Positions 5,374-55,346 of a stretch of DNA of 55,441 nucleotides are shown here, piece by piece. Under the pieces are notes generated by a model. It was not told the origin of the DNA and made no database searches. It worked only from the letters and a program-made list of their open reading frames with translations. Each line of letters opens with the position of its first letter. The first letter of the stretch is position 1. A program made the position numbers and the translations under genes. Source of the DNA: Parcubacteria group bacterium Gr01-1014_2 (GTDB lineage Bacteria > Patescibacteriota > Minisyncoccia > 2-02-FULL-40-12); the NCBI GenBank assembly GCA_007376425.1, contig VMGG01000004.1, forward strand, positions 1 to 55,441, written 5' to 3'.

Positions 5374-5625
5374 ATGACAGAAGAAAAATCTATCGGAAAA
5401 ATCTCCCATTATTACGATAAAATCGGAGTCGGGATTATAGAATTAGCCGGTGGTCTAAAGACGGGCGATACCATTAAAGTTAAAGGAAAGGACACTGATT
5501 TTGAGCAAGTTATTGATTCGATGCAGATTGAGCATGCCCAAGTCGAGAAAGCAAAAAAGGGTGATGTCATCGGTGTCAAAATGAATCAGAAAGTAAAAGA
5601 GGGAGACGAAGTGTACCTTAAGTAA
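5374..5625 (+). CDS. small EF-Tu domain-2-like beta-barrel protein
   Basis: 83 aa. Contains GVGIIELAGGLKTGDTIKVKG and KKGDVIGVK. Confidence 0.45.
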   Translation: MTEEKSIGKISHYYDKIGVGIIELAGGLKTGDTIKVKGKDTDFEQVIDSMQIEHAQVEKAKKGDVIGVKMNQKVKEGDEVYLK

Positions 5626-5748
5626 AATCCCAAATCTCAAGCACCAAATTCCAAATAAACTCCAAATTCAAAATTCCAAACATTTAGAATTTAGGTCATT
5701 GGAACTTGATTATTATTTGTGATTTGTGATTTGGAAATTGTAATTTTA
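5625..5748. repeat. family E heptamer-periodic palindrome upstream of lon
   Basis: The left arm aaatcccaaatctcaagcaccaaattccaaataaactccaaattcaaaattccaaac is about 85% identical, by eye, to an in-frame segment of mnmA (14832-14892). The right arm has tttgtga repeats. Confidence 0.65.
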
Positions 5749-9538: not shown

Positions 9539-9721
9539 CGAAAAGCCTCTCGGGTACAGCCATTTCGGAAACACTCGGCCCCGTACCACTAAAATAAATT
9601 AGTTTATTTTCTGTTTATCAGAATAAACCCTCGTTCCTCATTCGCCTCGCTACAAAGAACATCTCCTCTTAACGGCTCGGCTCATGAGGTTCCTCAATGG
9701 CTATACCCTGCGGGCTTTTCG
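9539..9721 (+). mobile_element. MITE-like repeat family A, copy A1
   Basis: About 183 bp. Terminal inverted repeats (TIRs) are cgaaaagcctctcgggtacagccat and atggctataccctgcgggcttttcg. Core is ctgtttatcagaataaaccctcg...ttcgcctcgcta...acggctcggctc. Confidence 0.75.
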
Positions 9722-9820
9722 TTTAAAAATTGATACGCCCTCGCCGCTTTCCATAGCCACAAACTCGCAAAAGTTCAGAAACTGATACAGCCAAGCTGGT
9801 TTCTGTTTTCGTTTGATTTC

Positions 9821-10622: not shown

Positions 10623-10872
10623 AGCGAAAAGCTCGAAGGTGTATGCCTCTGAATTTTTAAATAGGGCCCGTTGGGCAATGCCTTCTCAGGAACATCCGGA
10701 GCCGAGCCGTTATAAGGAGAGGTTTTTTGTAGCGAGGCGATGGATGAGCGAGCGGTTTATTCTGATAAACAGAAAATGATAGAATTATTAAAACTGTATG
10801 AGGCCGAGCGTTTCCTGAAAGGCGTTGCCCAATAAAGGGCCCGAAGACCTACACCCGAGGATAGCTTTTCGC
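10623..10872 (-). mobile_element. family A copy A2 (variant ends, inverted relative to A1)
   Basis: Core is aggaacatccggagccgagccgt...gtagcgaggcgatggatgagcgag...tattctgataaacag...gaggccgagcgtttcc. Outer TIRs are agcgaaaagct.../...agcttttcgct. Confidence 0.7.
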
Positions 10873-13872: not shown

Positions 13873-15105
13873 ATGTTGAAGAAAGTCAGCAGGAAAAAAA
13901 CTGTATATGTAGCAATGAGCGGCGGTGTTGATTCTTCGGTTGCCGCGGCTTTATTGAAAAAAGCCTATTTAGATTCGGATGGGCGTATTTGGATTGCCGA
14001 AGGACGAAGTCCGAAGGCGCGCTATTCGTGTGCTGTTGTGGGAGTTTTTATGAAACCATACCAGCCAAGGGCTGGAATTTTCAATTTTCAATTTTCAATT
14101 TTCAATAAAGATAATTGTTTATGGAAGCAGGACAGGGAAGATGCATTGCGAGTGGCGGCGAAACTGGATATTCCGCTTTTGACCTGGGACCTGTCCAAGG
14201 AATATGAGAAACGGGTGGTGAGGTATATGATCGACGGCTATAAAAAGGGGATTACGCCAAATCCAGATGTGATGTGCAATAAGTTCATTAAGTTTGGGTT
14301 ATTTTTGGAAAAAGCGTTGGAGATGGGCGCGGATTATATCGCGACCGGACACTATGTAAGGAAACAAACGACTTACAACAAACAACAAACAACTGGAGGG
14401 GAAAAAACTAAAAAGTCGTCAGTCGTAAGTTATAAGTTGTTAGTTGGCATTGATGAAAACAAAGACCAGTCATATTTTTTATACACTTTGACGCAGGAAC
14501 AATTGAGTCGTTGTCTCTTCCCGGTAGGGGACTGGAACAAAAAAGAAGTCAGAAAAATGGCTAAGAAATTCGGTTTGCCTAATTGGGATAAAAAAGACAG
14601 CCAAGGCGTTTGTTTTGTGGGGCCTTTGGAGGTTAAAGAGTTTTTAAAAAGAAATATCAAATCAAAAAGGGGATTGGTTTTAAGGAAAAGCGACCGTAAA
14701 ATTTTGGGGGAGCATGATGGGGTGTGGTATTATACCATCGGCCAGAGGCACGGTTTTGGCTTAAATGGCGGCCGGCCTTATTACGTAGTAGATAAAGATA
14801 CTAAAAAGAATATTCTTTATGTAGATGATTTAAAAAATCCCAAATCCCAAGCACCAAATCCCAAACAAATTCTAAATCCCAAAATCCAAATAAGAGAACT
14901 CAATTGGATAAGAAAACAGAGAGTACCACTAAATTGTAAAGTGAAGACTAGATACAGGCAAAAAGATATTGATTGCACCATTATAAAGAATGGTTCGGAT
15001 AAGGCTTTGGTGGAAATAAAAGAAAATAATCTGGCTATTGCGCCGGGCCAATCAGCCGTGTTCTACAAAGGGAACGAAGTTTTAGGCGGTGGGATTATAG
15101 TATAA
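13873..15105 (+). CDS. mnmA: tRNA-specific 2-thiouridylase MnmA, with several in-frame insertions
   Basis: Contains VAMSGGVDSSVAA, NPDVMCNKFIKFG, ATGHYVR, KDQSYFLY and DSQGVCFVG. Confidence 0.9.
   Translation: MLKKVSRKKTVYVAMSGGVDSSVAAALLKKAYLDSDGRIWIAEGRSPKARYSCAVVGVFMKPYQPRAGIFNFQFSIFNKDNCLWKQDREDALRVAAKLDIPLLTWDLSKEYEKRVVRYMIDGYKKGITPNPDVMCNKFIKFGLFLEKALEMGADYIATGHYVRKQTTYNKQQTTGGEKTKKSSVVSYKLLVGIDENKDQSYFLYTLTQEQLSRCLFPVGDWNKKEVRKMAKKFGLPNWDKKDSQGVCFVGPLEVKEFLKRNIKSKRGLVLRKSDRKILGEHDGVWYYTIGQRHGFGLNGGRPYYVVDKDTKKNILYVDDLKNPKSQAPNPKQILNPKIQIRELNWIRKQRVPLNCKVKTRYRQKDIDCTIIKNGSDKALVEIKENNLAIAPGQSAVFYKGNEVLGGGIIV
14076..14103 (+). repeat. perfect heptamer array (aattttc)x4 inside mnmA
   Basis: Read directly. 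Encodes IFNFQFSIF. Preceded by the hairpin ccagccaagggctgg. Confidence 0.85.
14832..14892 (+). repeat. family E element inserted in-frame in mnmA
   Basis: aaaaatcccaaatcccaagcaccaaatcccaaacaaattctaaatcccaaaatccaaata. Encodes KNPKSQAPNPKQILNPKIQI. Confidence 0.75.
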
Positions 15106-16483: not shown

Positions 16484-17941
16484 ATGAAAATAATCAACAT
16501 GGCTTCAAGCGACAATTTTGAAGATATTTTAGAAGCAGTTAAAGATTCAGAATCAGCCGAAGTGATTTTAGTTATTCCTAAATCAAACAGGGTTTTTAAG
16601 AATAAGAATAAAGTTGAAAAATTAAAAAACCACTTTGAAAAATTAAATAAGGATGTTTCAATTATTTCTTCCGGAGAAGAGACGTTTAAGAAAAGCCATA
16701 GAAAAAACACTGATATCGTTTCTCTCTACTCCGAAAAACCGTCTAAAGAAAAAAATATTTTTAAAGCTCCGCTCATATTCCCTACCATTTTGAAACAGAT
16801 TAACGGGAAAGATATGAAGAATTTTATTTTGATATTTCTTGGGGCCTCACTCTTATTTTTCATCTTGATTGTTTTGACTTCTGTAAGCCAGGCCAGGATA
16901 AGAATATTTCCGCATAAAAATGATTTTTCCATAAATATTCCAGTGACTATTTCTGATAAGATAACCGAGATCGACGAGGTTTATGGAATTATCCCCGGCG
17001 AGTCTATCCAAATTGAAAAAATTGTTTCAAAGACTTTTGTATCAAACGGCGAGAAAGACGTTTTCCAAAAAGCAAGAGGCAAAATAATAATTTATAATAA
17101 CTTTAGTACTTCGTCTCAAGTTCTAATTGCCACAACCAGATTCCAGACTCCGGAAGGGTTAGTTTTCAGGATAACCAAAGCAACTGTCGTGCCTGAAGCT
17201 ATTCAAGAGGGTGAGAAGCTTAAACCGGGGCAGATTGAAGTCGAGGTCGTGGCTGATCGGGCTGGCGAAGAATATAATATTGAGCCGACTGAATTTAAGA
17301 TTCCCGGCTTTTTAGGCACCCTGAAATACCAGGGATTTTACGCGAAATCAGTTGAAAAGTTTTCCGGCGGCTTTATTGGCAAGGCCAGTATTGTAACTAA
17401 AGAAGATATGGAAAAAGCTGAAAACCAAGTCAAAGAAGAAGCAGTAAATGAAATAAGGAAAGAGCTTGCCTTACTCATTAATTTTAAAATTCTTAATGAA
17501 ACATTGGATATAGAGTTAGAAACAGCTGATTCTAATACGGCAGGTGACCTTGGCCAAGAGTTTAGAGTTGGATACAGAGCCAAGCTTAAAACTATTGCTT
17601 TTAGGGAAGACGATGTCGCAAAATTTATTTCTCAGTATGTAGAAAACTCTCAAGACCTGAAAGTTATCCAGAAAGGGCTAAGAATAGATTATGGAGATAT
17701 TAAATTTAACAAGGGAGCAAATGAGCTTTCTTTGAAGTTAGCTTCGGTTGGTCAGACTGCTGAAAGTATAGATAAGGGGAAAATTATTTCCGAAATCGTT
17801 GATAGGAAAAGCGATGAAGCCAAGTCGTATCTGGGTAACCTAAAGGAGGTCGAATCAGCTCAAATATTTTTGTCGCCATTTTGGGTTAGGTCAATTCCCA
17901 AAAATAAAGACAGGGTAGAAATACAAGTGGTGATTGAATGA
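16484..17941 (+). CDS. membrane-anchored hypothetical protein (baseplate-J-like region possible)
   Basis: 485 aa with one TM near residue 120. No confident family call. Confidence 0.45.
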   Translation: MKIINMASSDNFEDILEAVKDSESAEVILVIPKSNRVFKNKNKVEKLKNHFEKLNKDVSIISSGEETFKKSHRKNTDIVSLYSEKPSKEKNIFKAPLIFPTILKQINGKDMKNFILIFLGASLLFFILIVLTSVSQARIRIFPHKNDFSINIPVTISDKITEIDEVYGIIPGESIQIEKIVSKTFVSNGEKDVFQKARGKIIIYNNFSTSSQVLIATTRFQTPEGLVFRITKATVVPEAIQEGEKLKPGQIEVEVVADRAGEEYNIEPTEFKIPGFLGTLKYQGFYAKSVEKFSGGFIGKASIVTKEDMEKAENQVKEEAVNEIRKELALLINFKILNETLDIELETADSNTAGDLGQEFRVGYRAKLKTIAFREDDVAKFISQYVENSQDLKVIQKGLRIDYGDIKFNKGANELSLKLASVGQTAESIDKGKIISEIVDRKSDEAKSYLGNLKEVESAQIFLSPFWVRSIPKNKDRVEIQVVIE

Positions 17942-23239: not shown

Positions 23240-24247
23240 ATGTTTACCAAAAAAATCGGAATAGATTTAGGCACAACTAATACTCTTGTTTTTGTTCCGG
23301 GCAACGGCATTAGGATTAATGAACCGTCAGTGGTGGCGATTTCTTTATTTGATAACCGCATCTTAGCGGTCGGCAATTTAGCTAAAGAAATGCTCGGCCG
23401 CGCGCCAGACACGATCTCGGTGGTCAAACCATTGAAAGACGGGGTCATTGCCGATTATAAGGTGACTCAAGCCATGATCAGATATTTTATTAATAATTCA
23501 TTCAGCAAGGTTAATTTTTTTAAAAAAGAAGTTTTGATGTCGGTGCCGGTGGCGATAAGTTCAACCGAAAGGAGAGCAGTGATTGAAGCGGGAATGAATG
23601 CCGGAGTCAAAGCAGTTTATTTGGTCAAAGAGCCGGTGTTAGCGGCAATCGGCGCCGGAATTCCGATCAATTCTTCTTACGGCCATATGGTCGTGAATAT
23701 CGGCGGGGGAACGACCGAGGTGGCAGTAATAAGTCTTGGCGGAGTAGTGACTTCGGCCGGGGTTAGAGTGGCCGGCAATAAAATTGACCAAGCCATTATT
23801 GATTACGTCAAAAAAAAGCATAATCTGGCCATAGGCGAAAGAACGGCCGAGCTGATTAAAATCAATATCGGCACGGCGGTAAAGGTTTCAAATGAAGAAA
23901 CTCTTTCAATCAGGGGGAGAGATTTAGTGACTGGCCTGCCTAAAACTATTGATTTAACTTCTAATGAAGTAAGCGAAGCGATTCAGGAGCAATTAAAAGA
24001 AATCAATCAAGTCATCAAGAAAGTTTTACAGGAAACGCCGCCGGAGCTTTGCGCTGACATTATTGAAAGAGGAATTGTGCTGACCGGCGGAGGGGCTTTG
24101 CTTAAAAATATAGATGTTTTCATCACCCGGCTAACCGGCGTTTCTTCGCATATTGCGGAAGAGCCGCTTCTTTGCGTGGCTAAAGGAGCCGGCGCAGTGC
24201 TTGAGAATTTAGATGTTTATAAGAGAAATATAATTACGAGAAGATAG
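23240..24247 (+). CDS. mreB: rod-shape-determining protein MreB
   Basis: Contains IGIDLGTTNTLVF, VNIGGGTTEVAV and LTGGGALL. Confidence 0.9.
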   Translation: MFTKKIGIDLGTTNTLVFVPGNGIRINEPSVVAISLFDNRILAVGNLAKEMLGRAPDTISVVKPLKDGVIADYKVTQAMIRYFINNSFSKVNFFKKEVLMSVPVAISSTERRAVIEAGMNAGVKAVYLVKEPVLAAIGAGIPINSSYGHMVVNIGGGTTEVAVISLGGVVTSAGVRVAGNKIDQAIIDYVKKKHNLAIGERTAELIKINIGTAVKVSNEETLSIRGRDLVTGLPKTIDLTSNEVSEAIQEQLKEINQVIKKVLQETPPELCADIIERGIVLTGGGALLKNIDVFITRLTGVSSHIAEEPLLCVAKGAGAVLENLDVYKRNIITRR

Positions 24248-24270
24248 ATTAAAGTAAAAAGCTACCGCGA

Positions 24271-24418
24271 GGCATATCAATTTCTTCGTTTGGGAGCCCT
24301 TCTTGGAAATGGCACGCAATTTTACTCGAATTGCCGCTAGCTATGGGCGTGTCTACCCCTTTATCCCCTAGCTTGTTACCGGCAATTCTTCGTAAAAGTA
24401 TCGGCCATTTCCTAAGAA
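24271..24418 (+). mobile_element. MITE-like repeat family B, copy B1 (right end replaced by A3)
   Basis: atcaatttcttcgtttgg...gaattgccgctagctatggg...ccctagcttgttaccggcaattc... Confidence 0.65.
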
Positions 24419-24592
24419 CCCGTTGGGCGATGCCTTCTCAGGAACATCCGGAGCCGAGCCGTAAAGAGGAGATAAGATAGGTAGCGAGGCGATGGATGAG
24501 CGAGGGGTTTATTCTGATAAACAGGAGATAAAAGAATTATAAAAGTTGTACGAGGCCGAGCGTTTCCTGAAAGGCATTGCCCAAGAAAGGGC
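24419..24592 (-). mobile_element. family A copy A3
   Basis: cccgttgggcgatgcc...ggagccgagccgt...gtagcgaggcgatggatgagcgag...gaggccgagcgtttcc...ggcattgccc. Confidence 0.7.
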
Positions 24593-24615
24593 TTAACTGC
24601 ATAACATCAATAAAA

Positions 24616-25962
24616 ATGAGGATAGCTTTAGTTCATGATTGGTTGGTGCGGCTTGGCGGAGCGGAGCGGGTCTTGATTGCTTTCCATAAAATTTTCCCCG
24701 AAGCCCCGATCTACACTCTTTTTTACGACAAAGAATTTGTTTCACAGTATCTTCCGAAAGCTAAAATAACTCCTTCATTTTTGCACAAAGTTCCAAATAT
24801 AAAGAAACTGCATCCGTGGCTGAAAATTTTAATGCCCGCGGCCATAGAATCATTTGATTTGTCTGACTTTGATTTGATTATTTCGTCGAGCCACGAATTC
24901 AGCCATGGCGTTTTATCAAAGCAGTCGGCCAAGCATATCTGTTTTTATCATAGCCCTTCCCGAATTTTATGGGACAGGACCTATGAATATGCCAGAGATT
25001 TTAAAGAAAGGGGAAAGGGCGCGTTTAAATTATCTTTAATAAAATTAGGCCAGCATTTTTTGAGAATTTGGGATCATGGAGCCAGCCAAAGGCCAGATGT
25101 TGTCTTAGCCAATTCAAAGCATGTGGCTCAAAGAATTAAAAAATATTATGGCCGAGAAGCCAAAGTGATTTATCCACCGGTAACGCTTTCGCGGGAGCAT
25201 CTGGTCCGCGAAAAGCCTCTCGGGTACAGCCATCTCGGAAACACTCGGCCTCATACAACTTATATACAAAATTTATCTCCTGTTTATCAGAATAAACCCT
25301 CGCTCCTCGTTCGCCTCGCTAAACGGATACCCCCTCTTTACGGCTCGGCTCGCGAGGTTCCTCAATGGCTATACCCTGCGGGCTTTTCGTTCAGAATTAA
25401 TACTGTTCACCGAACAACTCTCGCCCGGCTCGCTGATTACTTTTTAATCGTTTCTCAGCTTTACCCGCACAAAAACATTGACTTGGCGGTTGAAGCATTT
25501 AAGCATTTGCCGAGCTTGAATTTATTAATAATTGGCGAAGGGCCGGAATACAAAAATTTAAAATCCAAAATTAAAAAATTAAAATTAAGAAATGTAGAAT
25601 TGTTAGGGTTTGTTTCAGACGAAGATTTGCCGGTTTATTATAAGGGTTGCTTGGCATATCTTATTTGCAATGAAGAGGATTTTGGCATTTCGCCGATAGA
25701 AGCAATGTCTTTTGGAAAGCCGGTTTTAGCCTATAAAAAAGGCGGGGCAAAAGAGTCGGTGCTGGAAGGAAAAACCGGTGAATTTTTCGATAAGCTTGAA
25801 CCTGACTGTTTATCAGAAGCAGTAGAGTTAATCACTGAAAAAATAAAAAACGGCCATTTTAACGAGCTGGCTATAAAAAAACATTCTGAAAAATTCAGTT
25901 TTGAACGGTTTAAAAAAGAGGTTTTTGATATTATTAAATTTTTAGATTATAATTTGGCATGA
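24616..25962 (+). CDS. GT4-family glycosyltransferase carrying an in-frame family A insertion
   Basis: ATG at 24616 (MRIALVHDWL..GGAERV). C-terminal domain has GFVSDEDL and EDFGISPIEAMSFGKPVL. Confidence 0.8.
   Translation: MRIALVHDWLVRLGGAERVLIAFHKIFPEAPIYTLFYDKEFVSQYLPKAKITPSFLHKVPNIKKLHPWLKILMPAAIESFDLSDFDLIISSSHEFSHGVLSKQSAKHICFYHSPSRILWDRTYEYARDFKERGKGAFKLSLIKLGQHFLRIWDHGASQRPDVVLANSKHVAQRIKKYYGREAKVIYPPVTLSREHLVREKPLGYSHLGNTRPHTTYIQNLSPVYQNKPSLLVRLAKRIPPLYGSAREVPQWLYPAGFSFRINTVHRTTLARLADYFLIVSQLYPHKNIDLAVEAFKHLPSLNLLIIGEGPEYKNLKSKIKKLKLRNVELLGFVSDEDLPVYYKGCLAYLICNEEDFGISPIEAMSFGKPVLAYKKGGAKESVLEGKTGEFFDKLEPDCLSEAVELITEKIKNGHFNELAIKKHSEKFSFERFKKEVFDIIKFLDYNLA
25209..25389 (+). mobile_element. 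family A copy A4 inside the GT4 coding sequence
   Basis: Full-length with both TIRs. Translated as ...EKPLGYSHLGNTRPHTTYIQNLSPVYQNKPSLLVRLAKRIPPLYGSAREVPQWLYPAGFSF... Confidence 0.8.
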
Positions 25963-27167
25963 TGCGTTATAAAGCTCTAATACCAGCTATTTTAATTTCC
26001 TTAATTATCGGTTTTTTTGGCGGAGTAGAATTCCAGAAATTCCAGGAGCCAAGCCGGGGATTAAGAGAATTAATCAACCGCGATTTAGGACAACCCGAGG
26101 CGGTTGACTTCAGCTTATTTTGGGATGTTTGGAATCTGGTTCATCAAAGATATGTCGGCCGTTCTGAATTGAATACCCAAGACATGGTTTTGGGGGCGAT
26201 TAAAGGAATGGTTGAAAGCATCGGTGATCCTTTTACTGTATTTTTAAAGGCTGAAGAAAGTAAAAGACTGCAGGAAGACATAAGCGGAGAGTTTGCCGGT
26301 GTCGGGATAGAAATAGGGTTAAGGAAGGGGACTTTAACGGTTATTTCGCCGCTAGATGATACGCCGGCGTCCCGAGCCGGAATCATTGCCGGGGATAAGA
26401 TTTTAAGCATTGACAGCCAGTCAACCGCCGAAATTACCATCGAGGAAGCAGTTTCAAAGATAAGGGGCCGTCGAGGAACTAAAGTTGTTTTGACTATTTC
26501 AAGAAATAAAGACGGGGAAGATGAAACAAAAGATTTTGAATTAGTCAGAGACAAGATAAAAGTCCCGACGGTTAAATGGACCAAGATTGAACCGGATATC
26601 GGTCATATTAGACTTTTTAGTTTTAACCAAATAGCTAAAAATGAATTTGATAAGGCTCTTGATGAATTAAAAAAGCAGGGCGCCAGCAAGAAATTAATTT
26701 TGGATTTAAGAAACAATCCGGGCGGGCTTTTGGATTTAGCCATAGATATCTCAAGCTACTTTTTAGAGCCGGGTTACGTAGTGGTGATTGAAGACTTTGG
26801 CGGTGGTTTAAGAGAAGAACTAAAATCCAAGCCTAATGGCTTTTTAAAAGACGCAAAAGTCGTTATTTTAATCAATAAAGGTTCGGCTTCGGCTTCGGAA
26901 ATCGTGGCTGGCGCCTTGCACGATAACCTTGGCGTCAAACTAATAGGGGAGACGACGTTCGGGAAAGGCTCGGTTCAGCAGGTTGAACAATTGAGGCTTA
27001 AGACGGCTTTGAAAATAACCGTGGCCAAATGGTTGACACCGAAAGGGCGTTCCATTAGCGATCAAGGAATAGAGCCGGATATTAAAATTGAAAGGACCGA
27101 AGAGGATGTTAAAAACGACCGCGACCCGCAGCTGGAGAAGGCGATTGAAGTGATAAAAGAACTGTAG
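25959..27167 (+). CDS. ctpA: carboxy-terminal processing protease (S41) with PDZ domain
   Basis: Contains GDKILSID, LDLRNNPGG, GSASASEIVAGAL and TFGKGSVQ. Confidence 0.85.
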   Translation: MMRYKALIPAILISLIIGFFGGVEFQKFQEPSRGLRELINRDLGQPEAVDFSLFWDVWNLVHQRYVGRSELNTQDMVLGAIKGMVESIGDPFTVFLKAEESKRLQEDISGEFAGVGIEIGLRKGTLTVISPLDDTPASRAGIIAGDKILSIDSQSTAEITIEEAVSKIRGRRGTKVVLTISRNKDGEDETKDFELVRDKIKVPTVKWTKIEPDIGHIRLFSFNQIAKNEFDKALDELKKQGASKKLILDLRNNPGGLLDLAIDISSYFLEPGYVVVIEDFGGGLREELKSKPNGFLKDAKVVILINKGSASASEIVAGALHDNLGVKLIGETTFGKGSVQQVEQLRLKTALKITVAKWLTPKGRSISDQGIEPDIKIERTEEDVKNDRDPQLEKAIEVIKEL

Positions 27168-27179
27168 AAAGCCTTAATC

Positions 27180-27356
27180 GGCAATACCCAATTTCTTCTA
27201 GTGAGCCTCTTCTTGGAAATGGCGCGGTACTTTGCTTGAATTGCCGACAACTAGGGCGTGTCTACCCCTTTATCCCCTAGCTTGTTACCGGCAATTCTTC
27301 GCAAAGATACCGGCCATTTCACAAGACACGCCTCAAATCAGAAATTGGGCATTACC
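27180..27356 (+). mobile_element. family B copy B2 (full length)
   Basis: TIRs are ggcaatacccaatttct and agaaattgggcattacc. Internal hairpin is gaattgccg...ctaggg/ccctag...cggcaattc. Confidence 0.7.
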
Positions 27357-31275: not shown

Positions 31276-32562
31276 CTAATCATTTCTTGTAAACATCACT
31301 AAGTCCTTGAAGAATAAAGAAAGCGCCTTACTAAGCGGTAAAATTCTTAAAAAGTATTTCAAGTCAACTAATTGCCTTAAGCAATAACCCCAAAAGCCGG
31401 CGATGTTCAGCCCTTTATAATGAAAGTAGGCCCACTTGCCCCCTGCTGGTGCTATCCAGGCATCATAAAATGGCTTATAAGGCCCCATTCTCTGGTTTTT
31501 AATGGTTCTAATAATGTTTTCAGCAGCGACATCAGCTTGATCGTGAGCCACATAAGCCATTGCCGGGACTGGTTTTTTGGTTTGAGGGTCAATTAAAGTT
31601 GCGCTGTCCCCTATCGCAAAAATATTCTTGTTACTTGTTTCATCTGAATTTTTTGTTTGTAAAAAGTCGTTAATTTCAATTGTCCCTCTTTTTGTCAGTT
31701 TTAATCCTAAATTTTCCAAAAGTCTTGAGCCACGGACTCCGCCAGTCCAAATTATTAAATCAAAACCGGTTAGCTCTCCTCCAGCTTTTGTTTTTATGGA
31801 GTCGGGCCCGACTTCTTCGACTTGGGAATTAAGCCGAATATTAACGCCGAGTTTTCTAAGCCTTTTTTCAATAGATTTTCTTTGTCTTACGTTTAGCACT
31901 GGCAGAATCGCCGGGCCGGCCTCAAACAACTGAATCTGGGTGCATTTTTTATCCAGACTGCAGGCCTTGACGATATTTTTTACGCAACAGGCAAGTTCTG
32001 CGGTCAGCTCCACTCCGGTAAATCCCCCACCAATAATCCCGATTTTAATCGGTTCTGCCCGGTTCTCTTTCTGGTAATTATCGTAAATTTCCCTGATTTT
32101 TTTAAAAATCCCGATGGCGTCGTCTATGGCTTTAAAATTAAAGGCATAATCTTGAACTCCGGGAATCCCGTAAAATTCAGTTTCCCCGCCAAGGGCAATA
32201 ATTAAATAATCAAAATCGAGTTTGTTTCCGGCGCCGGTATTTACAAACCTTTTCCTTAAGTTTACTTCTTTTATTTCTGTTTGGACAAAATCTATTTTTT
32301 TGTTTTCTAATGTTTCGCTAAGGGGTATCGCAACCGAGCCTCTTAAGTATTTCGCAAAACCATCTTCAATTAGCCCATAAACCGTGGCTACTTCGTAAAG
32401 TGACGGCATGAAAAGGTGAAAATTATTCCGATCAACCAAGGTAATTTTCCAGCCTGCGGCTGGTCCGCCGGAGGCGGAAAAGTTCCTTTTGAGTTTTTTC
32501 TCCAACTTTAAAGCAGCGCTAACTCCGCCAAAACCAGCCCCCAAGATAAGGATATTTGTCAT
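31276..32562 (-). CDS. ndh: type II NADH dehydrogenase / FAD-dependent pyridine nucleotide-disulfide oxidoreductase
   Basis: Contains ILILGAGFGGV, IGIIGGGFTGVE and FAIGD. Confidence 0.8.
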   Translation of the reverse strand: MTNILILGAGFGGVSAALKLEKKLKRNFSASGGPAAGWKITLVDRNNFHLFMPSLYEVATVYGLIEDGFAKYLRGSVAIPLSETLENKKIDFVQTEIKEVNLRKRFVNTGAGNKLDFDYLIIALGGETEFYGIPGVQDYAFNFKAIDDAIGIFKKIREIYDNYQKENRAEPIKIGIIGGGFTGVELTAELACCVKNIVKACSLDKKCTQIQLFEAGPAILPVLNVRQRKSIEKRLRKLGVNIRLNSQVEEVGPDSIKTKAGGELTGFDLIIWTGGVRGSRLLENLGLKLTKRGTIEINDFLQTKNSDETSNKNIFAIGDSATLIDPQTKKPVPAMAYVAHDQADVAAENIIRTIKNQRMGPYKPFYDAWIAPAGGKWAYFHYKGLNIAGFWGYCLRQLVDLKYFLRILPLSKALSLFFKDLVMFTRND

Positions 32563-37993: not shown

Positions 37994-38174
37994 GAAAGCC
38001 CGCAGGGTATTGTTGTTGAGGAACCTCATGAGCCGAGCCGTATAGAGAAAACATTCTTTGTAGCGAGGCGATTGAGGAGCGAGGGTTTATTCTGATAAAC
38101 ACTGCTGTCCAACCAATATAACTACCTCTTGCGAGGCCGAGCGTTTCCGAAACAATTATACCCGAGAGGCTTTC
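37994..38174 (-). mobile_element. family A copy A5
   Basis: gaaagcccgcagggtattg...gagccgagccgt...gtagcgaggcgattgaggagcgagggtttattctgataaac...gaggccgagcgtttccg...cccgagaggctttc. Confidence 0.7.
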
Positions 38175-38199
38175 TTCTAAATATTTAGACTTAGCTATA

Positions 38200-40172: not shown

Positions 40173-40215
40173 GAGGCCCCGACTTTTTACGGGGCCTCTT
40201 ACATTATTTTTTTAG
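40173..40215 (+). terminator. Rho-independent terminator
   Basis: gaggccccg-actttttа-like loop-cggggcctc followed by ttacattattttttt. Confidence 0.7.
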
Positions 40216-40255
40216 ACTGCGCCGGCGAAGCCCGAAAAAAAAGTTTTTAAAATAA

Positions 40256-40437
40256 CGAAAAGCCCGCAGGGTATAGCCATTGAGGAACATCCGGAGCCGA
40301 GCCGTTAAGAGAAGATAAGATAGGTAGCGAGGCGATGGATGAGCGAGGGTTTATTCTGATAAACAGGAAATAAGAGAATTATTAAAGTTGTATGAGGCCG
40401 AGCGTTTCCTTAATGGCTGTACCCGAGAGGCTTTTTG
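40256..40437 (-). mobile_element. family A copy A6 (full length)
   Basis: cgaaaagcccgcagggtatagccattgagg...gaggccgagcgtttccttaatggctgtacccgagaggctttttg. Confidence 0.75.
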
Positions 40438-40722
40438 CACGGCATCACTCCTTTCTTCTCCGCAAAACCGCTAATCCTACTATTCCAGCTAGCGCCCACC
40501 AGAATTGGGCGGTTTCTGTTTTAAAATAGGCAAAAATCGGATGATCCAGTTTGGCCAAAATTTCAGCCGGCAGTAAAACCGTGATACGACTCACAAAAAC
40601 CCCAAGGATTAAAACGCTCAAAAAACAAGAACCAAAAAATAAGAGGTTGGTTTAGAGAGGTTTTCTAAAATGTTGGCGAAGTTGTCTAATATCAATCTTA
40701 ATATTATTATAGAATAAACATA

Positions 40723-43379: not shown

Positions 43380-43564
43380 CGAAAACCTTCCCTCGGTATA
43401 TGTCTTCGGGAACCGCTCGTCCAGCCCAGCGAGCGGGACTCGCTGTACTTACGACCTCGCAAAGTCAAGACTCGTTCTGCTTCGCAGAACTTTAAACAAT
43501 CTTGACTTACCCTGCTGCTCGGTCTCCAGAACTTCCCGAGAGACATATCCCTCGCGGTTTTCGC
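43379..43564. mobile_element. MITE-like repeat family D
   Basis: TIRs are gcgaaaaccttccctcggtatatgtcttcggga and ttcccgagagacatatccctcgcggttttcgc. Inner hairpin is aagtcaaga...tcttgactt. The TIR tip resembles family A. Confidence 0.6.
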
Positions 43565-43603
43565 TAATCTACCTTTCCCAAAGTGAAGGGTATTAATTCA
43601 AAA

Positions 43604-43861
43604 CGAAAAGCCCGCAGGGCACAGCCATTAGTTTCACTCCGGCCGCAGGGGTATAATCAATTTCTGAGCCTGGGGAGTCGTCTTAGAAAATAGCCGGTAT
43701 CTTTATGAAGAATTGCCGATGACAAATCTATGGTGGAGGTACCCTGATTTGTCGGCAATTCGAATAAAGTGCCGCGCTATTTTCAAGAAGGGGCACCAAA
43801 CGAAGAAATTGATTGTACCCCGAGAGACGGTTCCGAGATGGCTGTGCCCGAGAGGCTTTTC
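43604..43861 (-). mobile_element. family A ends only (A7 shell) enclosing a family B copy
   Basis: Left end is cgaaaagcccgcagggcacagccatt. Right end is gatggctgtgcccgagaggcttttc. The interior is B4. Confidence 0.6.
43649..43820 (-). mobile_element. family B copy B4 (inverted; type-2 inner hairpin)
   Basis: The reverse complement of its right flank matches the B3 left flank. Core is gaattgccgatgacaaatc...gatttgtcggcaattc. Confidence 0.7.
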
Positions 43862-43893
43862 AAATAATTCTCAACACTCTATCCCCTACTAAA

Positions 43894-45278: not shown

Positions 45279-45456
45279 GGTGTAATCAATTTCTTCGTTT
45301 GGTGCCCCTTCTTGAAAATAGCACGTCACTTTGCTCGAATTGCCGATAACTAGGGCGTGTCTACCCCTTTATCCCCTAGCTTATAAGCGGCAATTCTTCG
45401 CAAAGATACCGGCTATTTTCTAAGACGACTCCCCACGCTCAGAAATTGATTACACC
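45279..45456 (+). mobile_element. family B copy B3 (full length)
   Basis: TIRs are ggtgtaatcaatttct and agaaattgattacacc. Has the type-1 inner hairpin. Confidence 0.75.
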
Positions 45457-45757: not shown

Positions 45758-45843
45758 GTTTTGAAAAATAAAGCTTTCCTCGGCTATACCCCTCGCCGAT
45801 CTTTTTTTTCAAATTTACGTTTTAACATACTATAGCATATTAA

Positions 45844-45884
45844 GCCGAGCGTTTCCGAAATGGCTATACCCGAGAGGCTTTTCG
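45844..45884 (-). repeat. family A right-end fragment (A8)
   Basis: gccgagcgtttccgaaatggctatacccgagaggcttttcg. A solo-end-like cggctatacccctcg lies at 45781-45795. Confidence 0.6.
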
Positions 45885-45886
45885 CC

Positions 45887-52584: not shown

Positions 52585-52744
52585 TGTTCTAAATACGCAG
52601 CAGAATTGAACGCAACGAACTCTGAATTTGGAGATGAACGGGTTTGCTCAACCAGCCCCGCCTTTGGCGGGACTGGTCTCGCTTTGGCGGCGGCTTCGCC
52701 GCCGGTATTCGCCAAATTGAAGCGGATTTTAATACTTTCGGGGG
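52585..52744 (+). repeat. inverted repeat R, copy a (pairs with 54031-54190)
   Basis: ...acgaactctgaatttggagatgaacgggtttgctcaaccagccccgcctttggcgggactggtctcgctttggcggcggcttcgccgccggtattcgccaaattgaagcggattttaatactttcggggg. Confidence 0.8.
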
Positions 52745-52778
52745 AATTCAATTTTTTCTTTTTTCAAAAACTGTTAAT

Positions 52779-54239
52779 ATGAATAATATGAATGTGAAAA
52801 ATTGTGCAATTTATACTCGGGTCTCCACCGATAACCAAGCGGAAAAAGAATTTTCATCTTGCGAAGCGCAAGAACAGAAAATCCGCTCGTATATTTCGAG
52901 TCAGGATAACTGGCAAGTTTTCAAAACATATAATGATGGCGGATTTTCTGGAGCAACCCTGGAGCGTCCCGCACTCCAACAGTTACTTTCAGATTTAAAA
53001 AAAGAAAAAATTGATGTGGTTTTGGTCTACAAAATTGATCGGCTCACCCGTTCGCCGAAAGATTTTTACCAACTGATTGAATCTTTTGAGCAAGCAAAAA
53101 TTGATTTTATTTCCATTACTGAAAGATTTGACACCTCAACTCCAGCCGGAAGATTATTGAGAAATATCATGCTAACTTTTTCTCAATTTGAGCGAGAGCT
53201 AACAAGCGAGAGAACGAAAGATAAAATGTTAGAGCGAGCCAGAAAGGGTTTAGCTAATGGTGGATATACTCCTTATGGCTACTCGCGACAAGAGAAAAAG
53301 TTAGTAATAAGTCCGAAAGAAGCCGAAGAAATAAAATCAATTTTTGAAACTTATGTTGAAACTGGTTCATTGGCCGAGACCTATCGAATTTTGAAAAGCA
53401 AAAATGTAAAAAGTAAGTTTGGCAAAAATTTCTCAAAAACAATTATCGCCTATCTTTTACGAAATCCTGTTTATATTGGAAAGATAAAGCACAATAACCA
53501 GATTTACGATGGAATCCATGAGCCGATAATTTCGGAAGAAATTTTTGCCATTGCTCAAAAAATTCATAAGGAAAAGCAGAAAAATTTTAGAGTGTACAAA
53601 AATTTCCTGTTCGGCGGACTGATAAAGTGCGAGGAGTGCGGCTCAAATATGACTTCTTTCTTCAGCAACAAGCATAGAAATGGAGAATTCAAACGCAGAT
53701 ATTACTATTACCGATGTACTTCTACAACCAAATTTGACTGGCAATCTTGTTCTGTAAAACAAGTATCCGCCGAACGATTGGAAAATTTTTGTCTGGAAAA
53801 TTTAGAGCGAATTTCAGTTGATAAAAGCTATATTGAAAATCTTGTTTTTCGCCTAAATCATAGCTCTGACGCTGGATACCGAGTTGGACACGAACTAACT
53901 GATTCATGTTCTAAATTTTCCACCGAAACCATTTCGGATACTCTAAAATTTTTCCTCAATAAACTCAAAACCACCAAAGGAATTGAAAGAAATCTTTTTG
54001 CTAAAAAGTTTCTTTCAAACATTTTCTACTCCCCCGAAAGTATTAAAATCCGCTTCAATTTGGCGAATACCGGCGGCGAAGCCGCCACCAAAGCGAAACC
54101 AGCCCCGCCATTGGCGGGGCTGGTTGAGCGAACCCTCTCATCTCCAAAATCCGAGTTCGTATCGTCAAACATTGCTGTGTATCTTGAAGATAGTCCGAAC
54201 CCATTTCGCCGCCTTCGGCGGCGGTGGCCAAAACTCTGA
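52779..54239 (+). CDS. large serine recombinase
   Basis: Contains CAIYTRVSTDNQ, YKIDRLTRS, a recombinase domain, a Zn ribbon (CEECGS...YYYYRC) and a coiled coil. The last ~70 codons lie in repeat R copy b. Confidence 0.9.
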   Translation: MNNMNVKNCAIYTRVSTDNQAEKEFSSCEAQEQKIRSYISSQDNWQVFKTYNDGGFSGATLERPALQQLLSDLKKEKIDVVLVYKIDRLTRSPKDFYQLIESFEQAKIDFISITERFDTSTPAGRLLRNIMLTFSQFERELTSERTKDKMLERARKGLANGGYTPYGYSRQEKKLVISPKEAEEIKSIFETYVETGSLAETYRILKSKNVKSKFGKNFSKTIIAYLLRNPVYIGKIKHNNQIYDGIHEPIISEEIFAIAQKIHKEKQKNFRVYKNFLFGGLIKCEECGSNMTSFFSNKHRNGEFKRRYYYYRCTSTTKFDWQSCSVKQVSAERLENFCLENLERISVDKSYIENLVFRLNHSSDAGYRVGHELTDSCSKFSTETISDTLKFFLNKLKTTKGIERNLFAKKFLSNIFYSPESIKIRFNLANTGGEAATKAKPAPPLAGLVERTLSSPKSEFVSSNIAVYLEDSPNPFRRLRRRWPKL

Positions 54240-54272
54240 AAAATTGATTGGAAAATCTGAATCGCAATTCTG
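54031..54272 (-). repeat. inverted repeat R, copy b (left 160 bp pairs with copy a; right ~99 bp pairs with copy c)
   Basis: cccccgaaagtattaaaatccgcttcaatttggcgaataccggcggcgaagccgcc...gtgtatcttgaagatagtccgaacccatttcgccgcc...gaatcgcaattctg. Confidence 0.8.
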
Positions 54273-54358
54273 GTCATCAGCACTTTGTCCTACACAACGG
54301 ACAGGCAGCTTAACGCCCTTTTACGTGAGTTACCTAATGAGACTCACGGGCGAAGTGG

Positions 54359-54580
54359 TTAGGACGCTCTTTCGATCTTGCCGATACATTCGCCGCGCCC
54401 CGCTTTTATTACTTCTTCCACCTGCCGGCGGGCATCATCTTCTGAACGTGCCCGGACTTTCATCACGTACTCGTATTTTGAGTCGGGCTCAGGTACGAAG
54501 GCGTAATCATCTATTTCCGGACAATACACCTCCGAATAGTCGCAACCAACGACCGTCACCACAAAAAGTTGCTTCTTCAT
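54359..54580 (-). CDS. hypothetical 73-aa protein (GC-rich cassette, distal gene)
   Basis: MKKQLFVVTVVGCDYSEVYCPEIDDY... SD AAGGAG lies 8 nt upstream. Confidence 0.5.
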   Translation of the reverse strand: MKKQLFVVTVVGCDYSEVYCPEIDDYAFVPEPDSKYEYVMKVRARSEDDARRQVEEVIKAGRGECIGKIERAS

Positions 54581-54624
54581 CGCGATTTCTCCTTTTGGAA
54601 AGTGGCTCGCTAGGGCCGTGTTGG

Positions 54625-55032
54625 TTAACGGATGGAACGGATGGACTGATGCGCTGTCGCTTCGCTTCCGTCTTGAGCGAAGCTGAACTCGAGAATGTGG
54701 TACGGCTCTTTCACGCCGGTACGATACGCACTGACTTCGAGAGTCAACGCGCGGTGCCAGCGGAGAGTCAAACACACTTCAACTCGATGAGCTTCAGCGA
54801 AAGCTCTCTGTGTATCACCACTCTCAGAGTGGCAACCACAGACGAACTTATCAAGCCCGTCGTGAGGATACAATCTCAAGTTCTGGACCACGACACGACC
54901 TTGGGGATCGGTACCGAAAGCCACGAACTTGGCGAAAAAATTCAGAGCGGCGCGATATGCAATCGACCACTCCGTGTTCTTCTTGAGTGCGTCCTTCACT
55001 GTCTTGTCAACGAACAATGAAACTTTCTTCAT
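54625..55032 (-). CDS. hypothetical 135-aa protein (GC-rich cassette, proximal gene)
   Basis: MKKVSLFVDKTVKDALKKNTEW... The SD and leader are near-identical to those of the downstream gene. Confidence 0.5.
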   Translation of the reverse strand: MKKVSLFVDKTVKDALKKNTEWSIAYRAALNFFAKFVAFGTDPQGRVVVQNLRLYPHDGLDKFVCGCHSESGDTQRAFAEAHRVEVCLTLRWHRALTLEVSAYRTGVKEPYHILEFSFAQDGSEATAHQSIRSIR

Positions 55033-55095
55033 CGCGATTCTCCTTTTGGAATAGGCTCGCTAGGGCCTATAATGCCGGAATGGCACTATGTTTAT

Positions 55096-55124
55096 ACTAT
55101 ACACCTATCAGTATGATTTGTCAA
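55096..55124 (-). promoter_or_regulatory. sigma70 promoter TTGACA-17-TATAGT (minus strand) for the two-gene cassette
   Basis: Minus strand reads ttgaca aatcatactgataggtg tatagt. A second TTGACA lies 11 nt upstream. Confidence 0.6.
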
Positions 55125-55247
55125 GTTTTTGTCAAAAACCAACAAAAAAGCCCTATTTTAGGCCATTTTATGAGGATATTAAAATTTTATTTTTTTCCTA
55201 TGGTTCGAGCCGATATTTTTATTAGGTTCTTTGGCAGTTTTTTGATT

Positions 55248-55346
55248 CAGAATTGCGATTCAGATTTTCCAATCAATTTTTCAGAGTTTTGGCCATCGCC
55301 GCCGTAGGCGGCGAAATGGGTTCGGACTATCTTCAAGATACACAGC
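55248..55346 (+). repeat. inverted repeat R, copy c (pairs with 54174-54272)
   Basis: cagaattgcgattcagattttccaatcaatttttcagagttttggccatcgccgccgtaggcggcgaaatgggttcggactatcttcaagatacacagc. Confidence 0.8.

Follow-up and report, generated by a model that had tools for sequence, protein, structure and literature searches.

Among described systems, the closest counterparts of the element reported here include the Rickettsia palindromic elements (RPEs; Ogata et al. 2000, 2002), with 44 insertions in unrelated genes of R. conorii and nearly half of all RPEs located in open reading frames (ORFs) (PMC10969869). We analyzed a stretch of 55,441 nucleotides (nt) from Parcubacteria group bacterium Gr01-1014_2 (contig VMGG01000004.1, hereafter the window), in which one copy of a palindromic repeat, named family A, lies in frame inside the gene for a GT4 glycosyltransferase and is probably read through as a loop of the enzyme. 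Like RPEs, family A elements are palindromes of ~100-200 nt that are found both between genes and in frame inside a conserved protein gene, and in both cases the peptide is added at a structurally tolerant site and does not destroy the protein. The hosts of both have small, host-dependent genomes but are unrelated (Alphaproteobacteria versus Patescibacteria). The frames of RPEs are generally open, whereas two thirds of the family A copies have stops in the frame of the glycosyltransferase; likewise, RPEs occupy many unrelated genes, whereas family A is found in one gene (3/81 copies), and the two are likened here by description rather than by comparison of sequences.

Other small palindromic repeats of bacteria resemble family A in different respects. 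[quoted passage not shown] Neither of these classical traits was found for family A, in which the arms covary between subfamilies and the core is near-invariant, the opposite of an element defined purely by its terminal inverted repeats. Repetitive extragenic palindromic (REP) sequences and bacterial interspersed mosaic elements (BIMEs) with their RAYT transposases, as well as elements derived from IS200/IS605, lack target duplications, show compensatory change in their hairpins, and form nested palindromes, and family A is like them in all three features. Unlike REPs, which one account puts at 20-40 nt (PMC3733652), family A elements are ~180 nt long, and no Y1 transposase or TnpB was identified near family A copies, although no systematic search for them was made. 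With the bacterial MITEs that give hairpin RNA (ERIC/IRU, Correia/CREE, RUP, BOX, and Nezha; PMC10969869), family A shares a small size, multiple copies, a non-coding nature, and long inverted ends.

The in-gene copy is 181 nt long, extends from position 25209 (CGAAAAGCC...) to 25389 (...GGGCTTTTCG) on the plus strand with complementary ends, and reads CGAAAAGCCTCTCGGGTACAGCC...GGCTATACCCTGCGGGCTTTTCG. It was delimited by alignment, profile, five covarying helices, and RNA folding, and corresponds to amino acids (aa) 200-258 of the glycosyltransferase, the translation of which contains both peptides quoted in the preliminary description of this locus (KPLGYSHLGNTRPHTT...VPQWLYPAGFS and EDFGISPIEAMSFGKPVL). 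The 5' terminal arm (25212-25240, AAAGCCTCTCGGGTACAGCCATCTCGGAA) pairs with the 3' terminal arm (25357-25386, GTTCCTCAATGGCTATACCCTGCGGGCTTT; alignment and helix analysis) in helices 1 to 3. An internal hairpin, GTTTAT-CAGA-ATAAAC (25282-25297), forms helix 4, and helix 5 (25305-25357) pairs CCTCGT (25305-25310) with GCGAGG (25352-25357) and encloses the invariant motifs TCGCCTCGCTA and ACGGCTCGGCTC. All of these parts are given on the plus strand, and the predicted RNA fold of the in-gene element has an energy of -55.1 kcal/mol (z = -3.9 versus shuffled sequences).

Five more full copies, each of them intergenic (between long ORFs), are present in the window, and this copy can be aligned with them from end to end. 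Four of them, at 9539-9722 (plus strand), 10665-10843 (minus strand, arm subfamily 2), 37995-38176 (minus strand), and 40254-40438 (minus strand), were identified by repeat finder, alignment, and profile; the fifth (24415-24594, minus strand) lies 21 nt upstream of the glycosyltransferase start and has an orthologous copy with 94% identity in the sister contig L025. Family A is thus short and multi-copy (~180 nt, six full copies in 55 kb), with complementary arms of ~30-45 nt in every copy, and solitary arms are present at 45836-45885, 43814-43862, and 43583-43629. An nhmmer profile of the six window copies, the query copy included, matches the in-gene copy with E = 1.8e-54, which puts its membership in the family far beyond chance. 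The coordinates and the family membership first proposed for this element hold.

A search for the invariant-core pattern in 185,579 species genomes returned five Patescibacteria metagenome-assembled genomes (MAGs) and one chance match, and the same pattern was found in 72 metagenomic stretches, mostly from Hainich groundwater and Joint Genome Institute (JGI) aquifer samples. Viral contigs contained zero copies and so give no sign of phage carriage. To judge from these searches, family A appears to be confined to a few related groundwater Parcubacteria and is normally intergenic. Among 81 unique full-length copies from related Patescibacteria and metagenome contigs, 77 are located outside any spanning ORF, three are in long spanning ORFs that all encode this glycosyltransferase, and one more is in an evidently spurious ORF of 155 aa. 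An exhaustive HMMER scan of the insert peptide against 1.84e9 representative proteins gave seven matches, three of them short ORFs called over intergenic copies and the rest long repeat proteins. Most family A copies carry stops in most frames. The glycosyltransferase frame contains at least one stop in 14 of 21 intergenic copies and is open in the remaining seven; the copy at 9539, which had been singled out for a stop in this frame, has two, and in the L040-type subfamily the entire unit is open. With only three copies in ORFs, all in one gene, the in-gene case is a rare survivor and no general habit of the family.

The host gene (24616-25962, plus strand) encodes a GT4 glycosyltransferase of 448 aa with a GT-B fold, identified by Pfam, an AlphaFold 2 (AF2) model, and synteny, and the ORF (24577/24616-25962) reads across the element uninterrupted in the ORF map. 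The public annotation of the same protein (P0001, "glycosyl transferase group 1") has 429 aa, 19 residues fewer than the ORF from the ATG at 24616, which is favored as the start codon by orthologues that begin with MKIALVHDW. The N-terminal Rossmann domain (24616-25182, plus strand, aa 1 to ~189) matches Glyco_transf_4 (PF13439) at aa 32-193 with 35.6 bits against a cut-off of 28.5, and the C-terminal Rossmann domain (25439-25959, plus strand), which contains the E-x7-E motif (EDFGISPIE), matches Glycos_transf_1 (PF00534) at aa 275-408 with 112.5 bits against a cut-off of 26.4 and PDB entry 2f9f by sequence. The element consequently falls between the two domains, in frame, as had been described. 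Residues E353, D355, F356, G357, and E362 are invariant across 24 orthologues, and the gene order MreB, glycosyltransferase, CtpB-like S41 protease, and L9 is common to the orthologous loci. The enzyme has in common with GT4 retaining glycosyltransferases its two Pfam domains, its E-x7-E motif, and its GT-B fold. The AF2 model (predicted template modeling score, pTM, 0.76) has two confident Rossmann domains in a GT-B arrangement, with predicted local distance difference test (pLDDT) values in the N-terminal domain mostly of 75-95, dipping to 67-75 near aa 110-140. Its Foldseek matches include HepE (E = 2.8e-17), BshA, PimA, and MshA (TMt 0.64-0.75), and the matched GT4 structures are 357-400 aa long. 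These solved relatives have a short interdomain connection, whereas the enzyme in the window has ~85 residues more at this position. Pfam finds no domain in aa 193-275 and hence no Hint or splicing domain; this absence, the length of the segment (60-85 aa), and the occurrence of the same DNA elsewhere as a non-coding repeat all speak against an intein.

Orthologues locate the insertion in the interdomain linker and provide empty sites. The segment is missing from most of the 120 best homologues, these being 355-390 aa in length, and the linker of insert-free orthologues is only ~17-20 aa. The closest orthologue (P0003, on L025) has no element and is identical to the window protein at 91% of amino acids and 80% of third codon positions outside the linker. 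The element is present in frame in three lineages, those of the window, L001 (P0002, assembly GCA_964404775.1), and L003 (P0004, GCA_964446215.1). P0002 and P0004 are the only orthologues with a homologous segment, both from the same narrow clade, so that the segment was not found in unrelated lineages, and the same DNA is intergenic elsewhere. The frame is preserved in all three in-gene copies, also across a length difference of 3 nt, and all three have a 1-nt deletion (GCTA-AACGGAT) relative to typical copies. The insertion junction in L001 is identical to that in the window; the one in L003 is different (PPVE|KPLG...AGFS|PYFLIV). Related linkers contain what appear to be further insertions or their remnants, each in frame. 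In L026, a core that has lost ~75 nt internally occupies the L003 junction, and L027 has a different core between family A arms in reverse orientation, a core that is also found at ~43440-43520 of the window. L028, a sister of L001, keeps only GAAGAGCCTCTCGGG|CTTTTT, that is, the termini joined at the CGGG found in both arms, and in L002 a perfect 11-bp palindrome, CCGGGCGAGAG-TAATTCAT-CTCTCGCCCGG, is left that corresponds to the outer arms. From these junctions and remnants we infer at least three separate insertion events in the linker, followed by deletions. In P0008, P0020, P0037, and P0076 the linker is filled by NPKFQIP and SKFKIQ peptides.

The inserted unit is probably larger than the 181 nt and ~60 residues first proposed. 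To the left of the core, an extension at 25183-25208 (plus strand, approximate boundary) encodes TLSREHLVRE and is common to the intergenic sequence L040:1510-1533; to the right, an extension at 25390-25436 (plus strand, approximate boundary, TTCAGAATTAATACTGTTCACCGAACAACTCTCGCCCGG...) encodes FRINTVHRTTLARLA and was recognized by repeat sharing, its first ~25-40 nt being present also in L040, L055, L061, L024, and the window at 43583-43605. Third-codon-position identity between the window and L001 genes is 0.4-0.65 along most of the gene and rises to 0.85-1.0 over ~85 codons, which comprise the element with ~10 codons on its left and ~16 on its right. The intergenic copy L040:1510-1750 shares with the in-gene copies the left extension (CGGGAG.ATCTGGT.CGCG), the right extension (TTCAGAATTAATAC..TTC.CCG.ACA.CTCTC), and the 1-nt deletion. 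Its flanks resemble the glycosyltransferase linker, and it was considered as a possible glycosyltransferase pseudogene; this was ruled out by tblastn and an ORF map, which put the copy between genes that, on reading of their ORF translations rather than by domain search, are PBP2-like and MurF-like. The patch of high third-position identity and the outer extensions shared with an intergenic copy together suggest a unit of ~250 nt (about 25183-25436, aa ~190-274, ~85 aa), which would be essentially the whole interdomain linker. Junction-spanning peptides predicted for this protein include EKPLGYSHLGNTR and EVPQWLYPAGFSFR.

Synonymous (dS) and nonsynonymous (dN) divergence and their ratio (omega) set the insert apart from its host gene. 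When the window is compared with L001, the gene outside the linker has a dS of 1.45, a dN of 0.15, and an omega of 0.10, compared with a dS of 0.088, a dN of 0.158, and an omega of ~1.8 in the core element; the core elements of L001 and L003 give 0.065, 0.058, and 0.9, respectively. The glycosyltransferase is under purifying selection, and the insert is without protein-level constraint, in agreement with the earlier view that the element is not a conserved coding module, a view that the stops in most intergenic copies also support. By our own estimate, omega would approach ~0.5 if the window branch were unconstrained. The comparison of the window with L025 outside the exchanged tract defined below (dS 0.335, dN 0.033, omega 0.098) therefore indicates that the gene remains under purifying selection while bearing the insert.

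The gene is a mosaic. Nucleotide identity between the window and L025 is 0.90-0.98 along the glycosyltransferase and drops to 0.67-0.83 within ~25160-25575 (plus strand, approximate boundaries), a tract of ~400 nt in which the window is nearer to L001 and which both identity and dS mark as having an ancestry unlike the rest of the gene. On the C-terminal side of this tract, dS, dN, and omega are 1.09, 0.157, and 0.144 for the window and L025, and 0.81, 0.112, and 0.138 for the window and L001; outside the tract, the window and L001 give 1.7, 0.162, and 0.095. Outside the linker, the window gene is nearest to that of L025, which is element-free, and the L001 gene is nearest to that of L028, which has the footprint. 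Homologous recombination most likely exchanged the element-bearing linker, which was either brought into the window lineage or removed from that of L025. A history of vertical descent and simple losses alone was considered and is ruled out by the differing ancestry of the tract. The preliminary description of the element as inserted is thus retained as far as a foreign repeat in the linker is concerned, and local transposition is less probable than recombination of the ~400-nt tract. The copies themselves have also been mixed. Those in L001 and L003 resemble the intergenic copies in L040, L055, and L061 as closely (91-95%) as they resemble each other, and the window copy is chimeric, its central ~60 nt matching resident copies (GTTTATCAGAATAAAC type) and its right part keeping the GCTA-AACGGAT deletion of the L001/L040 type, which points to gene conversion or recombination between elements. 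Identity between the L001 and L028 genes is a mosaic as well, with 0.86-0.95 over the initial 120 codons, a fall to 0.62-0.85 in the middle, and a rise to 0.92-0.97 around the catalytic motif, implying frequent recombination of this gene beyond the window lineage.

We consider it likely, on these grounds, that a dispersed hairpin repeat became lodged in frame in the linker of a GT-B enzyme, that it is read through as a neutral loop of ~85 aa, and that the allele has been moved by recombination. A non-autonomous, hairpin-forming repeat, probably a nested unit of ~250 nt with outer arms, would lodge in the interdomain linker, and only insertions that preserve the frame and contain no stops would survive in an essential or useful gene. 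The mRNA would then be read through to give an enzyme of 448 aa with a ~85-aa loop joining the two Rossmann domains, probably a disordered neutral passenger rather than a functional module; the in-gene copy could survive because the linker tolerates almost any sequence. Homologous recombination would have brought in the allele as a ~400-nt tract, or else have deleted the element from the sister lineage, and the central part of the copy would later have been overwritten by a resident-type copy. That its nucleotides are conserved would be due to recent lateral spread and to conversion between copies, not to a function of this one copy. Three observations suggest translation through the element: the ORF and its frame are preserved in three lineages, the host gene is under purifying selection, and there is no internal start. 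No in-frame ATG, GTG, or TTG is present in the sequence between the element and the first strand of the C-terminal domain, which argues against a split enzyme, and a scan of 24200-26100 for promoters and terminators found none within the element.

Several observations weigh against this explanation. The DNA of the element is much better conserved than synonymous sites, with a dS of 0.09 versus 0.8 in the neighboring tract and 1.5-1.7 elsewhere in the gene. A neutral passenger as old as the gene would be expected to have diverged far more, and such conservation requires that the element spread recently, underwent gene conversion, or was selected at the nucleotide level. The AF2 model assigns a pLDDT of <50 to residues 193-260, as expected of a disordered loop, but the insert is present in only 3/24 sequences of the underlying alignment, and its low values may partly reflect that. 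A hairpin of -55 kcal/mol within the mRNA could hinder translation or attract RNase III. As to mobility, no direct target-site duplication was found in 24 copies aligned with their flanks, in which the bases just outside the arms are instead inverted-complementary (CG..CG, GAG..CTC, GAAT..ATTC). The search for a transposase partner in the window found only a serine recombinase with unrelated inverted repeats, and a 1.7-kb interval of L084 bounded by family A arms contains no ORF recognized as a transposase, its ORFs not having been scanned against Pfam. A comparison of the window with L025 downstream of ctpB gave no clean filled-versus-empty junction for family A, the intergenic region there being a mosaic of different repeats.

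The structure of the family is supported by its variation. In 21 diverse copies, the five helices have 95.5% of cells in standard pairs (35-61% in slid controls), and 12 pairs change on both sides, in 52 cells, a covariation that none of 500 shuffles reaches. The arm subfamilies covary (GCCAT/ATGGC, GTTGT/ACAAC, GCCTT/AAGGC), helix 5 has compensatory variants (CCTCAT/ATGAGG, CCTCGC/GCGAGG, CATCC/GGATG), with its pair 109-155 being GC in nine copies, AU in six, CG in four, and UA in one, and variants of the inner hairpin keep pairing (GTTTAT/ATAAAC, GTTTTT/AAAAAC, GTCCC/GGGAC, GTTCGT/ACGAAC). The most conserved parts of the family are the unpaired motifs ACGGCTCGGCTC, TCGCCTCGCTA, and GGAAACGCTCGGCC. 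Rfam 15 at the gathering threshold detects only a tRNA in the whole window; a permissive scan gives nothing at 25150-25450 and, at 40200-40500, only a sub-threshold match to the snoRNA sR32 (E = 0.35, 12.8 bits versus a gathering cut-off of 40) that is not credible. With no target duplication, no transposase partner, and no Rfam match, family A is best regarded as a structured palindromic repeat that is MITE-like in shape; the label holds for its shortness, copy number, and terminal inverted repeats, and "MITE" in the strict sense is undemonstrated.

Such a fold may also be kept for its own sake. Under this alternative, which we regard as unlikely, the element is maintained because its RNA or single-stranded DNA, once folded, has a function (in controlling mRNA stability or translation, in binding a host factor, or as a site of recombination or insertion), and the peptide is a by-product. 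The compensatory changes in the helices and the high conservation of the unpaired motifs are consistent with it, as are an excess of G-U over A-C pairs (61 versus 19) on the strand that is sense in the glycosyltransferase, the low dS of the in-gene element relative to its surroundings (0.09 versus 0.8-1.7), and an inner hairpin that is kept in the in-gene copies of L001 and L003 with another sequence (GTCCC..GGGAC). However, the GC-rich hairpin variant is also intergenic (L040, L055, and L061) and does not require evolution in situ, copies between co-directional genes show no clear bias in orientation (19 sense, 12 antisense), Rfam gives no match, and most orthologues, the sister lineage included, manage without the element. 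The upstream copy at 24415-24594 differs from its L025 orthologue at about the rate of the neighboring genes (94% versus 90-98% identity), so no extra constraint in situ is seen there. A broader form of this idea, to which we give a similarly low probability, is that family A is not the decaying relic of a transposon but a new nucleic-acid element selected for its structure (an RNA with a role in the cell, or a single-stranded DNA mobilized through its hairpin without target duplication or any known transposase), with fold and loops kept even in coding sequence and the outer-arm hairpin in the glycosyltransferase linker serving as a preferred landing or recombination site. Such a site would explain the repeated insertions in this linker, and, if the idea is correct, the same ~180 nt would be both a protein linker and a folded RNA or DNA signal.

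It is considerably less likely that the segment is not translated within one protein, whether through its removal at the RNA level like an intron, the synthesis of two domain polypeptides, or decay of the gene into a pseudogene. The long terminal stem does join the ends of the element, as in excised intervening sequences, but three diverged in-gene copies keep the frame and have no stops, as do the elements of L026 and L027. Rfam, including its intron and ribozyme families, is silent, no in-frame start codon follows the element, and decay into a pseudogene is hard to reconcile with the omega of ~0.1 obtained when the window is compared with its close sister. Still less probable, and already close to refuted, is an ancestral origin of the segment as glycosyltransferase sequence with the intergenic copies derived from the gene. 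P0002 and P0004 do carry a homologous segment at the same place; however, 77/81 copies lie outside spanning ORFs, two thirds of those examined have stops in the glycosyltransferase frame, the segment is absent from thousands of GT4 relatives and from the nearest orthologue, the omega of the insert is 0.9-1.8, and family A arms flank other cores too. An assembly artefact, in which a repeat-induced misjoin placed the element in the gene, could be imagined for a MAG with many repeat copies but is hardly believable, given the same insertion in the independent assemblies GCA_964404775.1 and GCA_964446215.1 and an exact reading frame on both sides.

Family A is not the only palindrome found in frame in these genomes. 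A 57-nt A/C-rich repeat, intergenic at 5624-5680, recurs in frame at 14834-14890 inside an MnmA-like tRNA methyltransferase gene (13873-15105), where the added peptide, KNPKSQAPNPKQILNPKIQI, falls precisely at the border of the Pfam M and C domains. The NPKFQIP and SKFKIQ peptides in the glycosyltransferase linkers of P0008, P0020, P0037, and P0076 are similar to it. The L001 glycosyltransferase has a second in-frame insert in its C-terminal domain (L001:11180-11257) with a perfect 13-bp stem (RGVLRALAASNG) that encodes RG(V/T)LRALAASNG; this palindrome is also present in the glycosyltransferases of L006 (3801-3829) and L086 (3505-3533) and is intergenic in L093 and L013. Three unrelated genes contain, in frame, a ~40-nt hairpin that encodes QRFPASHGNLRRA, namely those for the L025 glycosyltransferase (1170-1238), an L001 Pyr_redox_2 oxidoreductase (17000-17039, 100% identical DNA), and a 303-aa ORF of L056 (9462-9546). 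Owing to two such inserts, the L001 oxidoreductase has 488 aa versus 425-428 in L002 and the window. The Pyr_redox_2 gene of the window (31279-32562) has an extra segment of its own, of 8 aa, near the N-terminus. Several small palindromes in frame in unrelated genes hint at a broader phenomenon at the level of the clade. Taken together, this palindrome set loosely resembles the situation in Rickettsia (PMC10969869), and it is for the set, rather than for family A itself, that the parallel drawn in the preliminary description may be kept.

Other repeats of the window are interwoven with family A. A family B repeat between mreB and the glycosyltransferase gene (24296-24414), with further copies at 27205-27327, 45304-45426, and 43649-43820, is cleanly absent from L025 in a region that is otherwise 92-94% identical, and this polymorphism suggests recent mobility or deletion of family B. 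A composite at 43380-43880 has family A-type arms (43814-43862 and 43583-43629) that enclose a family B core and is adjoined by a family C core at ~43440-43520, the same core that is found reversed and in frame in the glycosyltransferase linker of L027 (P0015). From such combinations, the arms and cores of these palindromes appear to be exchangeable modules. The region 52587-55346 contains the large serine recombinase gene (52644-54239; Resolvase, Recombinase, and Zn_ribbon_recom domains), flanked and overlapped by a 159-nt inverted repeat (52587-52745 and 54030-54188) and followed by a 99-nt inverted repeat with 98% complementarity (54174-54272 and 55248-55346) in a stretch of higher G+C content (0.51); it is possibly a mobile element integrated at the contig end.

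Bacteria of the candidate phyla radiation (CPR) have very small genomes that are usually called streamlined, yet this clade of Parcubacteria carries several palindrome families. They are found repeatedly in frame in surface linkers of conserved enzymes, namely the GT4 glycosyltransferase, MnmA in the same window, and the Pyr_redox_2 oxidoreductase in related genomes. To our knowledge, protein-coding palindromes have long been held to be a peculiarity of Rickettsia. A search of the literature on MITEs and palindromic repeats in CPR bacteria, Patescibacteria, and Parcubacteria, incomplete in its coverage and hence weak evidence of novelty, returned nothing relevant; as far as could be found, palindromic selfish DNA in frame in a protein is a known kind of insertion in a lineage from which it has not been reported. 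Inserts of this kind make proteins longer and, in MAGs, can mislead annotation as well as the drawing of domain boundaries by homology. A second, unrelated lineage with reduced genomes and such palindromes would suggest a general link between small populations or host dependence and the tolerance of selfish DNA within genes, and would offer a natural experiment on the origin of new protein loops and linkers.

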